From a virus, in IMG/VR virus record IMGVR_UViG_3300022539_000516: a stretch of DNA of 48,954 nucleotides; one strand, written 5' to 3'. Numbering within the stretch: the stretch's first letter is position 1; every line of letters begins with the position of its first letter. The translations under genes were made by a program, and so were the position numbers. The notes beneath the pieces are model-generated. The model saw only the letters and a program-made list of their open reading frames with translations. It was not told the DNA's origin and ran no database searches. Shown here in pieces: positions 1-4,717 of this stretch.

Positions 1-115
1 AAAAGAGAAAGACTACGAAGAAAAAGACACCGACTAGAAAAAAGAGAAAGACTACGAAGAAAAAGACACCGACTAGAAAAAAGAGAAAGACTACTAAAAA
101 GAGAAAGACTACGAG
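1..115 (+). repeat. 39-bp tandem repeat encoding KKRKTTKKKTPTR
   Basis: aaaagagaaagactacgaagaaaaagacaccgactagaa occurs twice exactly, followed by degenerate copies; a similar unit recurs near 215-290. Confidence 0.9.
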
Positions 116-860
116 GAAGAAGGGCATGACTGTTTCGGTTTCTACTAAGAAGATAATAGCTGAACTGAAAAAGTCTGGAGTTCTCAAGCCTGCGTTTTCT
201 ACTCCTAGAAAGAAAAAGAGAAAGTCTACTACTAAGAAGAGAAAGACTACGAAGAAAAAGACGACTAAGAAGAGAAAGAAGTCTAGAGCGAAAAAGAATC
301 CAGTCGTGGAAATTCTTGAAGGACTCGGAGCAGTTAATCCAAAGGCAAGAAGGAAGACTCGCAAGAAATACAGAAGGAAAGCTTATCGCAACCCAGCTGA
401 AGGACCATTTACGGTTTTGTGGACTGCACTTGGCGTTAGCATTGGTTGGGCTATAGGAAGACTTATTACCATGGGAATTAGTAGGGTTAAGTTCTTCCAG
501 ACGGCCGAGCTAACTCCGAACTATTTTGCTTATGCTGCACCACTCGCCCTTCCTATAATTCCTCCGATAAAGGATGCACTAGAAGGATTTACGAAGAATT
601 TGAATCTTCCATTTACTTGGGACTCTGTTTTTGCAGGCATTGGTGTAAGCGCAATATTCGGAATAGCTAAACCGTTTGTAGCCAATATGGCAGAAACCAG
701 CAGGATAAAGGGTTTCTTGCAAACAATGCTCGGACAGGACGACAGTTCTCCAATCATTATAATACCTTCTGGTCAGTTAACCGGTATGGAAGGTGCTGGC
801 ATAGAAGGTCCTGGTATAGGAGATTGGGGACCGGAACCAGAAGCTGGATGGGGCGATTAA
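1..860 (+). CDS. Lys/Arg/Thr-rich (histone H1-like) protein with C-terminal hydrophobic segments; putative virion core/membrane protein, 5'-truncated
   Basis: The frame of ORF 126..860 is open back to the window start (KRKTTKKKTPTRKKRKTT...). It has basic low-complexity repeats, three NP motifs (KKNP, VNP, YRNP), then hydrophobic helices and an acidic GxG-rich tail. It lies directly upstream of the putative capsid gene. Confidence 0.6.
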   Translation, partial: KRKTTKKKTPTRKKRKTTKKKTPTRKKRKTTKKRKTTRKKGMTVSVSTKKIIAELKKSGVLKPAFSTPRKKKRKSTTKKRKTTKKKTTKKRKKSRAKKNPVVEILEGLGAVNPKARRKTRKKYRRKAYRNPAEGPFTVLWTALGVSIGWAIGRLITMGISRVKFFQTAELTPNYFAYAAPLALPIIPPIKDALEGFTKNLNLPFTWDSVFAGIGVSAIFGIAKPFVANMAETSRIKGFLQTMLGQDDSSPIIIIPSGQLTGMEGAGIEGPGIGDWGPEPEAGWGD

Positions 861-902: not shown

Positions 903-2089
903 ATGAATGGAATAGGCGACGTTTATGATACCGATGAGTTGGGTGTTTATGATGCAGCTATGGAAGACATGGGCGAAGGCCCGGTAGTAGTCTTTCCGGA
1001 ATCAGACCTTATGGGAATGGGACAAACTGGAGCCGATTTTATACGTAGGCTTCCCAGGGTCAGAAAGCTTCCCCACAAGAAGTATCTGTATCCAAAGTTT
1101 AAGCATCCAGGTAGAGTCAGAGCCGCTGCACTGAGGGAACAAATTACTGACTATTTATACGACACAATTCGCCAAGGAGATTTTGGTACTGGTACATCGT
1201 TCAAAGTGTTCACCAATGTCGGTGGTAAGACTCTGGAGTTTACGAACCTGGAGACTAATGGACAGCTTCCGTGGCAAGAAGCCTTTAAGGTTCTTGGTAT
1301 AGTTGCAGTTCCGACTCCTCCGCAGATAGACAGTATCGCTGAGAAGGCTCAGGTCGAATTAATGACAATGGGTTCTTGGGAATTGTTCATTGGAACGAAC
1401 AAACGTGTCAAAATCGGCACCTTTCAGAAGAAATTCTGGAATGCAAATCCTTCAAAGTCGGGGAAACCCCTGCGAAAATGCGAGGCAATCCCGAGCCAAG
1501 CTCCTTATGGAGAAGGTGTAGAGGCTCGACGGAGGATACCCTTCAATATGGGTAATGAGAGAGTCCAGACCGCAAACATTCTTAATTGAATGGCAGTGAA
1601 AACTGTAGTGGTAAAGCGCAAGAGGCCCAATCGACATGATTTTCAACTTTGAAGTGACTACTGCTATTTACGGACTCGATACAGTGGATGTCTTTTTCTC
1701 ATGGGTAAGGACGCCGTTCATAAGAGATAAGGGATACTATGCATTGTCTGAATACGATGATATTATAATTCCGCCTGGACAGACTTTCTATGTAGACCTT
1801 ACCTTTAGGACCGCTCCTAATCCGACCACGCACGGGTCAGCAAACGGGCCCCTTTCAGAAGAAATTCTGGAATGTAAATCCTTCAAATTCGGGGAAACCC
1901 CTGTAGAAATACGAGGCAATCCCGAGCCAAGTTCATCTAGTAGAAAAGGTGTAGAGACTCGACGGAGGATACCCTTTAGCATGGGTAGTGAGAGAGTCCA
2001 GACCGCAAACATTCTTAATTGAATGGCAGTGAAAACTGTAGTGGTATGTCAAATTCTTCCTGCTTGGTAAGAGAGATAGACCTGCGTAG
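903..2089 (+). CDS. Putative major capsid protein (single jelly-roll-like), split by two group I introns; exons 903-1408, 1617-1837, 2049-2089 (255 aa from ATG 903, 258 aa from GTG 894)
   Basis: Splicing gives ...WELFIGTNKRV|ARGPIDMIFNF...IIIPPGQTFYVDLTFRTAPNPTTHG|FKFFLLGKRDRPA*. The spliced ORF is continuous and beta-rich, with TNLETNGQLP, IPPGQxFxV and a terminal hydrophobic-G-x-x-x-R-P pattern. The capsid call is inferred from pattern and context. Confidence 0.6.
1409..1616 (+). ncRNA. Group I self-splicing intron (IC3-like, ORF-less, 208 nt), copy 1
   Basis: P1 is exon GUGU|C paired with GGCAC, with U1408.G1417 wobble. Core elements are AAGTCGGGGAAACC, GGCAATCCCGAGCCAAG, AAGGTGTAGAGGCTCGACGG and GAGAGAGTCCA; P9 is GCAGTGAAAACTGT. 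The intron ends in G1616 and removal restores the frame. Confidence 0.9.
1838..2048 (+). ncRNA. Group I self-splicing intron (IC3-like, ORF-less, 211 nt), copy 2
   Basis: P1 is exon GGGU|C paired with GGCCC, with U1837.G1848 wobble. The core is near-identical to copy 1 (AAATTCGGGGAAACC, GGCAATCCCGAGCCAAG, GTAGAGACTCGACGG, GAGAGAGTCCA). The intron ends in G2048 and removal gives the C-terminus FKFFLLGKRDRPA*. Confidence 0.9.
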
Positions 2090-2101
2090 TAGAAAGTAAA
2101 T

Positions 2102-2148
2102 ATAGAGAATGCGTAATGTTGACGCAGACCTCTTGCGCATTCTCTATC
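2102..2148 (+). terminator. Stem-loop after the capsid gene (possible terminator or processing hairpin)
   Basis: atagagaatgcgtaa ... ttgcgcattctctat inverted repeat; no clear U-tract on the + strand. Confidence 0.45.
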
Positions 2149-2174
2149 AAAAATTAAAATTTTGCGGGGGATTT

Positions 2175-3065
2175 ATGGAAGCATTAGTTGTAAATAAAGA
2201 GTTTATGGACTCGATGGAAAAATTGCATATAAAGGGTTATAATACTAAAGAAATTAGCAAGGAATTAAATGTTAGTCGCTCAACCTGTTATAAATATCTG
2301 AATATTATGGGTCATAAATTTTATACTACTAATCCTAAAAAATATGATAGATTTAATGTACCATTAACTAAAGATGAATCATGGGTTTTAGGAGTTTTAA
2401 CTTCTGACGGAAGTATTACAAGAAATCCTAATGGAGGAAATGGTTTTGTTAGATTGCATGTCAAAGATAAAGAATTAATTGATAAAGTTAGAGATATAGT
2501 TTCAATATTTAATGAACATGAACTAAATGACGGTTTTTTTCAAATTGCATCATATAATAGTGAGTTTATTGAAAAACTTTATAAACTAGGATTACATGAA
2601 AATAAAGTTACAACAGTTTCTCCACCAAACATAGAAAATATAGAATTGAATCATTACATTCGAGGATTATTTGATGGTGATGGACATATAGGACTAACAG
2701 AAACGAAAAAAACTGACCATATAGGTTCTATCAGAACTACATATATAACATCCTCTCGTAACATGATTGAATTTATAAAAAATCAAGCAAATAATTTAGT
2801 TGGATTAAGTCCAAGCATTTTAACGAAATATTCTGAATGGAGTACGAATCCATGTTATACTTTTGCACTATCTGGTAAAAAAGCATTTCTTTGGCTTTCT
2901 TGGCTTTACAAAGATTCCGAAGATAAAAACAGATTATCAAGGAAGTATAATATTTTTAAACCGTTCAAACAATATTTTAAAATAAATGAAGATAATGAAG
3001 TAGTTCGCAGAGTTATACAAAACCCCAACACATCATCGCAGATGTATTGTTGGGTAAACCCCTAA
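2175..3065 (+). CDS. Free-standing double-motif LAGLIDADG homing endonuclease with N-terminal HTH
   Basis: Motifs SWVLGVLTSDGSI and HYIRGLFDGDGHI; HTH-like TKEISKELNVSRSTCYKYL; C-terminal RLSRKY. GGGGGA precedes ATG 2175 (ORF track start is 2109). More AT-rich than the capsid gene. Confidence 0.88.
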   Translation: MEALVVNKEFMDSMEKLHIKGYNTKEISKELNVSRSTCYKYLNIMGHKFYTTNPKKYDRFNVPLTKDESWVLGVLTSDGSITRNPNGGNGFVRLHVKDKELIDKVRDIVSIFNEHELNDGFFQIASYNSEFIEKLYKLGLHENKVTTVSPPNIENIELNHYIRGLFDGDGHIGLTETKKTDHIGSIRTTYITSSRNMIEFIKNQANNLVGLSPSILTKYSEWSTNPCYTFALSGKKAFLWLSWLYKDSEDKNRLSRKYNIFKPFKQYFKINEDNEVVRRVIQNPNTSSQMYCWVNP

Positions 3066-3082
3066 GCACAAAGGAGGACATA

Positions 3083-4153
3083 ATGTCTTGGGGAAATGAT
3101 GAAGAAGAGCAAGAGACTCCAGAGATAGGAGAAGTTTCTGTCAGAAGGTATGACAGAGCACCGTATGTAAGAAAACCACCTACTGAGTTACACATAAGGC
3201 CAACAGTTGCAATAGGTACGAGAAAAGCTTCTGTTGAAGACATAGTTAAAGAAGAACCTTCTCGTAAAGAACCCCCGCATAAAGAACCCCTGACTGGAAA
3301 AAGAGAATCAGAAGCCAAGGTGGAAGCCAAGACTGTTATGCCATGGCAACGCTGGCGACAATCTTCCCCGTATGTATTCAAATTCGACAATAGTAGTCGC
3401 AATAATGAAATAGGAAATAATTTTCTCTGGACGAAACTTTATAAGAACGCTTATATAAACGAGAGTGGAGATTTCGGAAGTGTTGCAGCTTTACAAAATA
3501 GCCAATTTAACATGAGAGTAGGAAATGAAGACCTTTTTAGCGATTATGTAGACCTTGATGCCGCATTCAATGCAATATACCCCTTAATTCTTCCTATGGG
3601 ATGGTTTATCCCGGCAGGCCAGAGAATGTTATTGTTATTTAGAAACTCATTGGATTCTGATATAGCAAATACTTTCGAATTTTATGCGCACGGATATTTT
3701 CGTCCCGATTGGAAAGAACCAAAATTTCAGCCTCACATATATGTAGTAGGAAAAAATATCCAGTCAGACGGTAATGAGTTTAAGGTAACGATTTCAAAAG
3801 ACCGGCATTTTGTCTTAGAGAAGATTGGAATAATAATCAGGGATTCTAATTTTCAGCATTGTGAAGAATATATAGATGACGGAGTTACAAGTAGTGGTAG
3901 AGGAATTTTAGACCAAGCAGAAGCTAACTTCGGTGCCGCAGACGAATATACTATCTCTCTTAATGTGTATACGCATAACTTGCATAGTCCAAACCAGCTT
4001 ATTAATTCAATAATTGGCCCGATGAGATGGCCGTTCAAAACGAGAGTATTTATACCAAGAGGAACTTACATCACTGGCCAGTTGAATTTTCCTTCAGGAA
4101 CAACGGATATATGGCTTGACCTTTATTTTATCGGATACTTTATCTTTGACTAG
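3083..4153 (+). CDS. Putative virion structural protein with two tandem beta-sandwich (jelly-roll-like) repeats
   Basis: GGAGG RBS before ATG 3083. Two internal repeats, WFIPAGQRMLL..FEFYAHGYF and VFIPRGTYITG..LDLYFIGYF, echo the capsid C-terminal pattern. Confidence 0.45.
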   Translation: MSWGNDEEEQETPEIGEVSVRRYDRAPYVRKPPTELHIRPTVAIGTRKASVEDIVKEEPSRKEPPHKEPLTGKRESEAKVEAKTVMPWQRWRQSSPYVFKFDNSSRNNEIGNNFLWTKLYKNAYINESGDFGSVAALQNSQFNMRVGNEDLFSDYVDLDAAFNAIYPLILPMGWFIPAGQRMLLLFRNSLDSDIANTFEFYAHGYFRPDWKEPKFQPHIYVVGKNIQSDGNEFKVTISKDRHFVLEKIGIIIRDSNFQHCEEYIDDGVTSSGRGILDQAEANFGAADEYTISLNVYTHNLHSPNQLINSIIGPMRWPFKTRVFIPRGTYITGQLNFPSGTTDIWLDLYFIGYFIFD

Positions 4154-4162
4154 GAGAATTTA

Positions 4163-4717
4163 ATGGAACGAAGATTAATAGACAGAGATAAACCGTGGGA
4201 GCCTGAACAGAATCGTGGATTGGGGGGAGCAGATGATGTAAGTGGCCCGTATCCCCAGATTCTCATCAGCCCGATTGATAAGCACCTAAGACTTAATTGT
4301 AATTTTAGTCCGGCTGGTGGACCGCAGAATCAAACCAGAGTGCTTATGCGTGGAACACCGGGAAAATTAATATATATCCCGAGAATTTGTGTCATCTGCA
4401 TTCCTCTGGACCAAGCCGACTTTTATGATATACAGAGACGAATAACAATATCCCTTCTTTTGAATACGAACACGATTTCCGATGTTGAATTTCTTCTGTC
4501 AACTCCATTCCAGGAGAATTGGATAACTGAATTGTTGCAATTACCTTTGCAGGCATCAGATGTATTGTCGGTGAATGTAGTATGGGACGAAACGCAGATG
4601 GTACAGCATCGTTACCTCTATTTTAGGTATAAGGGGCTTCGAATACCCGAAGATATATTCCAAACTTTAACACCGATTGAGAGGATAGAGATATGCCGAA
4701 CATATTTAAGAATTTAG
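4163..4717 (+). CDS. Putative structural beta-rich protein (minor capsid-like)
   Basis: Good RBS; GLGG motif near the N-terminus; LPLQASDVLSVNV..LYFRYKGLRIP resembles the pattern in neighbouring genes. Confidence 0.4.
   Translation: MERRLIDRDKPWEPEQNRGLGGADDVSGPYPQILISPIDKHLRLNCNFSPAGGPQNQTRVLMRGTPGKLIYIPRICVICIPLDQADFYDIQRRITISLLLNTNTISDVEFLLSTPFQENWITELLQLPLQASDVLSVNVVWDETQMVQHRYLYFRYKGLRIPEDIFQTLTPIERIEICRTYLRI

Follow-up and report, generated by a model that had tools for sequence, protein, structure and literature searches.

Several near-identical group I introns without an open reading frame (ORF) have been described in the tail tube gene orf142 of phage Twort (PMC10136302, PMC11878797). 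Group I introns are also known from the capsid genes of Tuc2009 and mycobacteriophage LittleE, with a related intron in a tail gene of BAKA (PMC3706429), and the capsid genes of crAss-like phages of the Zeta group are split by up to four introns (PMC7886860). The type traditionally found in phages is subgroup IA2, to which the Twort introns belong (PMC11878797), and a 2014 review placed all phage introns then known in protein genes. The type member of subgroup IC3 is the intron of tRNA-Leu(UAA) (PMC2238919; bioRxiv 10.1101/2020.01.27.920355). Reverse splicing has circumstantial support from related group I introns that occupy different sites of ribosomal DNA (rDNA) (PMC1299323, PMC3984707). 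The locus described here lies in a 48,954-nucleotide (nt) stretch of viral DNA (IMG/VR record IMGVR_UViG_3300022539_000516), which is referred to at its full length as the window and is part of a contig of ~134 kb of an uncultured phage from a marine-sediment metagenome. As judged from sequence and predicted fold, one gene in the window very probably consists of three exons separated by two ORF-less group I introns of the tRNA-Leu(UAA) family, termed A and B, and a relative of this gene carries a related intron, C, at a third site.

The two elements resemble the tRNA-Leu(UAA) intron in ribozyme family, in a size of ~200-250 nt, in lacking an ORF, in long core words common to both, in the GNRA loops on P2 and P9 and in the absence of a P5abc extension. 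Unlike that intron, they reside in a protein-coding phage messenger RNA (mRNA) in which P1 is formed with coding sequence, no anticodon-stem pairing joins the exons and several sites occur in one gene. The gene setting is similar in Twort orf142, where several small near-identical ORF-less introns, each with its own P1, also lie in one virion structural gene of a large phage. The Twort introns, however, are of subgroup IA2 and stand one 23-nt exon apart, whereas A and B are IC3-like, 221 nt apart and accompanied by an alternative third site in a relative; splicing and exon skipping have been demonstrated in Twort, while splicing of the present introns is predicted. The introns of Tuc2009, LittleE and the crAss-like phages likewise interrupt highly expressed late structural genes that annotation splits, and LittleE and BAKA have related introns in different genes of related phages. 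Many of these introns contain endonuclease ORFs and their subgroup is another or is not stated; the host gene here codes for no identified major capsid protein. The rDNA introns are similar in that close relatives occupy different sites of one gene and the sites match the guide sequence, but they are found in eukaryotic rRNA, in contrast to a bacterial-virus mRNA for which empty and filled alleles of every site are available.

The initial annotation had described two almost identical elements of 208 and 211 nt in this gene, and both are present where it placed them (Table 1). Over their full length A and B are 89% identical (188/212), with the mismatches concentrated in L5, P6a and L8 and with an identical 3' block (~1567-1613 in A, ~2000-2045 in B). 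The Rfam model RF00028 (Intron_gpI), which is the one general group I model in that database, matches positions 1399-1587 with 54.1 bits (E 4.4e-11) and 1828-2020 with 67.5 bits (E 4.3e-15), both above its gathering score of 50. No other family exceeded its gathering score in the scan of all 48,954 bases, and sub-threshold matches to mir-205 (4111-4184) and ceN30 were taken as chance. An assembly artefact was considered as the source of the two copies and rejected: the independent Logan assembly of the same sample (run X1) places each copy, with its distinct sequence, on separate contigs that break solely within the identical 3' block, where the depth is approximately double. The duplication is therefore real. 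No further copy beyond A and B was present in the 58 kb of this genome that were examined.

Excision of both elements joins the exons into a single frame of 255 codons that reads NKRV|ARGP across the first joint and THG|FKFFLLGKRDRPA, followed by the stop codon, across the second (a vertical bar marks a splice site). Gene callers instead break the gene into products of 228 and 128 amino acids (aa), as had been anticipated for automated annotation. The joints can be compared with natural alleles. The close homolog of the exon 1 translation, P0002 (77-79% identity), is encoded on the independently assembled contigs L001-L003, and the L001 gene carries no insert at either of the insertion sites A and B. 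It reads aacaaacgagta gcaagaggcccg at site A, coding for an uninterrupted NKRVARGP, and cacgcatggatttaaattcttcctgcttggtaagagggataggccagcgtag at site B, coding for an uninterrupted THGFKFFLLGKRDRPA before the stop, and these joints equal those predicted for the window to the nucleotide. L001 has its own related group I intron, C, at a third site that follows ATGACAATGGGT, 35 nt upstream of site A. RF00028 scores this copy at 51.3 bits, above the gathering score, and the copy in L002 and L003 also exceeds it. The empty site C of the window (1370-1375) is an exact match to the GGCCC guide of intron B. Comparison of the window with L001 shows sites A, B and C each both filled and empty, and all three are located inside 464 nt of one gene.

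Table 1. Coordinates of the predicted gene parts, the neighbouring elements and the related introns on other phage contigs.
Feature	Sequence	Coordinates	Strand	Description
Exon 1	window	903..1408	+	ATG at 903, preceded by Shine-Dalgarno-like GGGGGTGA; 3' end is GU, codon phase 2
Empty site C	window	1373..1374	+	AUGGGU|UC; intron-bearing in L001, without insert in the window
Intron A	window	1409..1616	+	predicted group I intron, IC3-like, 208 nt, no ORF; splice sites 1408|1409 and 1616|1617
Exon 2	window	1617..1837	+	221 nt; alignable with intron-less homolog P0004
Intron B	window	1838..2048	+	predicted group I intron, IC3-like, 211 nt, no ORF; splice sites 1837|1838 and 2048|2049
Exon 3	window	2049..2089	+	13 codons and TAG stop at 2087-2089
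Stem-loop	window	2105..2144	+	40-nt inverted repeat directly 3' of the stop codon; kept in L001
Homing-endonuclease gene	window	2175..3065	+	free-standing LAGLIDADG, N-terminal helix-turn-helix; inserted in the intergenic spacer; Pfam PF14528 (1.5e-10) and PF02796; PHROG 4645 endonuclease (3.7e-24)
Two IC3-like introns	L073	164-375, 800-1022		one capsid gene
Two IC3-like introns	L066	1511-1726, 2161-2375		one capsid gene
Two IC3-like introns	L046	425-633, 1432-1641		one capsid gene
tRNA intron	L083	2150-2365		phage contig
tRNA intron	L059	9575-9794		phage contig
tRNA intron	L010	4959-5188		phage contig
tRNA intron	L013	6608-6838		phage contig
tRNA intron	L042	1334-1547		phage contig; ~45 further loci of this kind

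The orthologous exons of the window and L001 are 84% identical overall and 62% identical at third codon positions. Codon differences between the two comprise 41 synonymous and 9 non-synonymous changes in the conserved part of exon 1, 26 and 3 in the 74 codons of exon 2, and 4 and 0 in exon 3. Since the differences in the spliced frame are mostly silent, the three exons appear to be translated as one frame in both phages, and this pattern indicates that purifying selection acts on the spliced frame. The alignment with P0004, a remote homolog that has no introns, starts at residue 77, crosses both joints and reaches a C-terminal RP motif (pairwise E 4e-12); P0004 ends in a G.R.RP motif similar to the end of exon 3. 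The three-exon model proposed in the initial annotation is borne out by these alignments, in which P0004 and L001 run through the joints and the read-through tails find no homolog.

Both copies have the P1 pairings that had been proposed for them, each with a U.G wobble at the splice site and each followed at the 3' end by a terminal G (G1616 in A, G2048 in B). In intron A, GUGU|C pairs with GGCAC (1405-1409 with 1416-1420; 5 pairs), with U1408, the 5' splice-site U, opposite G1417. In intron B, GGGU|C pairs with GGCCC (1834-1838 with 1847-1851; 5 pairs), with U1837 opposite G1848. RNAalifold applied to the three copies found P1 (with the U.G at the cut), P2, P4, P5, P6a, P7, P8 and two P9 hairpins unaided, and 8 pairs in this fold show compensating changes. 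A P1-P9 model that includes the P3/P7 pseudoknot was also drawn by hand, and its pairs were counted on 10 family members. In this model 90.2% of cells are paired, whereas sliding the 3' partners by 1-3 columns lowers the value to 33-42%. Of the 62 pairs, 31 are altered on both sides, four of them in P3, and the P7 and P9 stems are 100% paired. In P7 (1521-1526 with 1562-1566 in intron A) a bulged A precedes the G-C pair that usually serves as the guanosine site, and L2 and L9b are GAAA loops. The architecture is compact: P2 is a single hairpin, P6 and P8 are short, and both P2.1 and P5abc are absent, which is the layout that defines IC3. Neither intron has an internal endonuclease ORF, for which 208 and 211 nt are too short, and the only frame entering them is read-through from upstream.

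Family membership and this intact anatomy suggest excision by the two-step group I reaction. On the pre-mRNA each intron would adopt the P1-P9 fold, including the P3/P7 pseudoknot, and its guide sequence would pair with the last four exon nucleotides, placing the U.G at the cut. An external guanosine held in P7 would then attack the 5' splice site, after which the released exon would attack behind the terminal G. Excision of both introns would produce the mRNA for a beta-rich protein of 255 aa. With two near-identical ribozymes per transcript, exon skipping is a possibility by analogy with Twort orf142 (PMC10136302); the exon-skipped joint (1408/2049) is out of frame and would read VQILPAW before a stop.

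The IC3 assignment, which the initial annotation had based on core words of the cyanobacterial and plastid tRNA-Leu intron, was examined with a covariance model (R1) built from introns A, B and C only and run on loci fetched with a core word pattern. R1 scores cyanobacterial tRNA-Leu(UAA) introns (Microcoleus, Microcystaceae, Leptolyngbyaceae and Cyanobacterium sp.) at 84-89 bits over the full length of the model, and tRNA-Leu(UAA) introns on phage contigs at 94-113 bits. The assignment therefore holds, as a model of three phage copies recognizes tRNA-Leu(UAA) introns at 84-113 bits. All 80 of the 80 IMG/VR loci listed for the core-word scan are matched by R1. The genomic placement of 68 hits in 69 of these 80 loci, with redundant loci omitted, was determined using ARAGORN with introns allowed and a tblastn probe. 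By this analysis 52 of the 68 hits are in tRNA genes (29 of these genes were called as tRNA-Leu(UAA), with the intron at the classical anticodon position), 15 are in HK97-type major capsid genes (12 Pfam PF19821, 3 PF21703) and one is unplaced. The tRNA genes interrupted in this way on phage contigs, mostly tRNA-Leu(UAA), are often situated inside tRNA gene arrays.

The nearest relatives by R1 score (113-133 bits) are capsid-gene introns of other uncultured phages, including those on L073, L066, L055, L024, L078 and L046, and in at least nine further contigs the PF19821 gene is interrupted once, at a conserved position (AAC.CGGU|). These capsid-gene introns are similar to A and B in being ORF-less, ~215 nt long and sometimes present twice in one gene. 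They differ in that their hosts are PF19821 or PF21703 genes, a family other than the host gene here, and in that their insertion site is conserved across contigs; in addition, the paired introns within one capsid gene are not mutual closest relatives in the tree, whereas A and B are. No publication on IC3-type introns in phage protein genes was found, and such introns are frequent in IMG/VR data. The setting is less exceptional than the initial annotation had supposed, given the published introns in phage structural genes, the published cases of several similar introns in one gene and the IC3-like introns common in IMG/VR capsid genes. Because gene callers split this gene and many of the IC3-bearing capsid genes in IMG/VR, the structural genes of uncultured phages are probably under-annotated.

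The kinship of the three copies was inferred from a maximum-likelihood tree of the intron core from which the guide sequence and exon flanks had been removed. A and B are sisters with a support of 0.97 and the clade of A, B and C has a support of 0.996, at which the resolution of the tree ends. Pairwise identities are 89% for A and B and 77% for C with either of them. Introns B and C have the guide sequence GGCCC and follow exons ending in GGGU|, whereas intron A has GGCAC and follows an exon ending in GUGU|; the one guide nucleotide that differs covaries with exon position -3 (A1419 with U1406 in A, C1850 with G1835 in B). The three sites have little in common beyond A[C/U]G[G/U]GU|, to which |UC can be added for B and C. 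The initial annotation had concluded that one intron spread to a second, unrelated site and adapted its guide. The sister relationship and the covariation of guide and exon agree with this conclusion, but the re-targeting amounts to one nucleotide, and a third site, in L001, is part of the history as well; the intron there has the guide of intron B.

Empty and filled alleles differ by silent changes at nucleotides that pair in P1 and P10. At site A the codons are CGA GTA in the empty L001 allele (3474-3482) versus CGT GT|C in the filled window allele (1404-1409), and at site B they are CAT GGA TTT (L001 3687-3698) versus CAC GGG T|TC (window 1831-1839). These changes are not statistically compelling, given a third-position divergence of 38%. 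Exact-word scans of IMG/VR and of Joint Genome Institute (JGI) metagenome contigs revealed no other copy of this intron lineage, and three JGI loci returned by the scan were set aside as unrelated or as weak group I matches only. A 186-nt contig of run X3, from another sample of the same sediment study, aligns at window 1912-1965 and is a further variant of the lineage, closer to the L001 copy than to A or B.

There is about an even chance that the copies arose when an intron, once spliced out, inserted itself again at a nearby position of its own transcript or of a sister one and subsequently entered DNA. In such a process the target would be chosen by 4-5 base pairs (bp) of P1 pairing, A[C/U]G[G/U]GU|, and reverse splicing would be followed by copying back into DNA and by fixation. 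Introns B and C could use their common guide GGCCC, and site A would need one guide change, C to A. P1-guided re-insertion is suggested by the membership of all copies in one clade, by three sites within 464 nt, by a likeness among the sites that is limited to P1 nucleotides and by the one-base guide change. Gene conversion may keep A and B alike. A wider reading, to which somewhat less than an even chance is given, is that these loci record intron hopping within the intron's own transcript by reverse splicing and that tRNA-type IC3 introns have spread into the virion genes of numerous uncultured phages, forming a reservoir absent from a literature centred on IA2 introns and DNA-metabolism genes.

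Several points weigh against these interpretations. The reverse-splicing route has long been proposed but never directly shown in nature (PMC3984707), and it is for this reason that it is placed no higher. The motif GGGU occurs five times in the spliced mRNA, so that pairing alone is insufficient to explain site choice. Three copies are too few to root the direction and order of the moves, and the sister relation of A and B could stem from gene conversion instead of a recent duplication. Splicing itself is a prediction: none of the runs listed as containing window 1200-2200 is an RNA run, and no spliced or intron-less form was seen in the three DNA runs compared with the locus. P10 consists of 1-2 bp only, with no tRNA-like exon pairing to hold the exons. 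Furthermore, the upstream frame is open for 60-65 codons through the ribozyme core in all three copies (window 1407-1589 and 1837-2022, L001 3219-3419) and is ended in each by the same UGA in L9a, while the insertion phases of the copies differ (2, 1 and 0). Ribosomes could therefore disturb folding; in many phage introns an early stop is thought to keep ribosomes out (PMC3984707).

The principal competing explanation involves the free-standing LAGLIDADG gene (Table 1), which begins 86 nt after the stop codon, or 127 nt past the end of intron B, has a G+C content of 0.29 and is without a counterpart in L001, where a spacer of ~70 nt is found instead. The possibility that this gene is contained within an extended intron B was rejected, since the L001 gene ends at the same stop codon without the endonuclease gene. 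Collaborative homing of an ORF-less intron with a free-standing endonuclease has been described (PMC3984707), and the LAGLIDADG gene may promote the spread of the intron-bearing allele between co-infecting phages in this manner. Under a purely DNA-level scheme, collaborative homing or the repair of off-target cuts, and not reverse splicing, would have moved or kept the introns: the enzyme would cut intron-less alleles near site B, repair would copy the introns together with the endonuclease gene, and the introns would protect their own genome. Such a scheme draws on the published precedent and on the position of a gene of foreign G+C content beside intron B in the two-intron genome but not in L001. 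It is nevertheless considered unlikely, because homing explains spread to the same site and not to three different sites, the sites have only a few P1-pairing nucleotides in common rather than a longer, protein-sized recognition sequence, and L001 has an intron without the endonuclease gene. The LAGLIDADG gene thus does not account for the site changes, although the DNA-level and reverse-splicing routes are not mutually exclusive.

An alternative history, in which other phages or bacteria with related introns supplied A, B and C independently of one another, would not lack donors: phage contigs and bacterial genomes are rich in IC3-like introns, and a second sample from the sediment study contains a further variant of the lineage. 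The strongly supported clade of the three copies (0.996) with A and B as sisters (0.97), the failure of the exact-word scans to find the lineage elsewhere in IMG/VR and JGI metagenomes and the confinement of the three sites to 464 nt of one gene make separate acquisition improbable. More improbable by far is that the inserts are decayed, inactive introns and the locus a pseudogene or a source of separate truncated products. This possibility would be compatible with the indirect nature of the splicing evidence and with read-through frames that are open into the introns. It is, however, difficult to reconcile with the pairing of all core helices and the compensating changes among A, B and C, with strong purifying selection on exons 2 and 3 in the spliced frame only, and with read-through tails that are intron sequence lacking a homolog, while P0004 aligns through the joints. 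Re-insertion by reverse splicing is accordingly the preferred origin of the copies.

Textbooks propose that group I introns can transpose to ectopic sites by reverse splicing, but the support is only circumstantial and comes mostly from eukaryotic rDNA (PMC3984707). In this locus a bacterial virus provides a compact test system, consisting of a ribozyme of ~210 nt and three natural targets in one short mRNA. With natural empty alleles and a one-base difference between guides, reverse splicing and site preference could be measured directly in vitro. The special value of the locus lies in this three-site polymorphism with matched guide sequences.

The 255-aa host protein is likely a virion structural protein, whereas its designation as a capsid protein in the initial annotation describes only a possible role: the protein has no Pfam or PHROG match, and the model of its homolog is a beta-sandwich of moderate confidence only. 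An exhaustive HMMER search returned only the L001 homolog P0002, P0004 and P0003, the last of which was rejected as a spurious repeat protein with SpaA_4 prealbumin-like repeats. A profile search with the host family gave no new members, and the family remains small (the window protein, P0002 and P0004-P0008). The AlphaFold model of P0004 residues 120-317 is the beta-sandwich in question, with a predicted local distance difference test (pLDDT) value of 62. Its best structural match is the SPV1 capsid protein (Z 8.6), followed by those of HCIV-1, P23-77 and FLiP (Z 6-7), all of the single-jelly-roll type and all within the background range of the tool, and phage tail-fibre and cement proteins are also among the neighbours with background-range scores. 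Foldseek found no match to the P0004 model in the PDB at E <= 0.001, and neighbours in BFVD, VIA and the ESM Atlas are generic beta-sandwich or unnamed viral clusters.

The gene is flanked by a basic membrane-type protein and further beta-rich proteins and is located ahead of an SLT transglycosylase, a neighbourhood that fits a virion module. A neighbouring protein of 356 aa, folded to look for a capsid module, gave a model with a pLDDT of 35. The stem-loop behind the stop codon may be a terminator or a processing hairpin. The product of the gene at window 1-860 is very basic, with KRKTTKKK-type repeats (tandem DNA repeats at 1-125) and, after these, hydrophobic segments. It shares 88% identity with its L001 counterpart and matches no family. 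Very few ORFs in window 1-48954 and in L004 1-9098 have Pfam or PHROG matches, and none of the ORFs tested in the two sequences matched a terminase, portal or HK97-type capsid protein. The functions that are present comprise the SLT transglycosylase, DnaJ, amidase_3, a transglutaminase-like protein and sugar-modifying enzymes.

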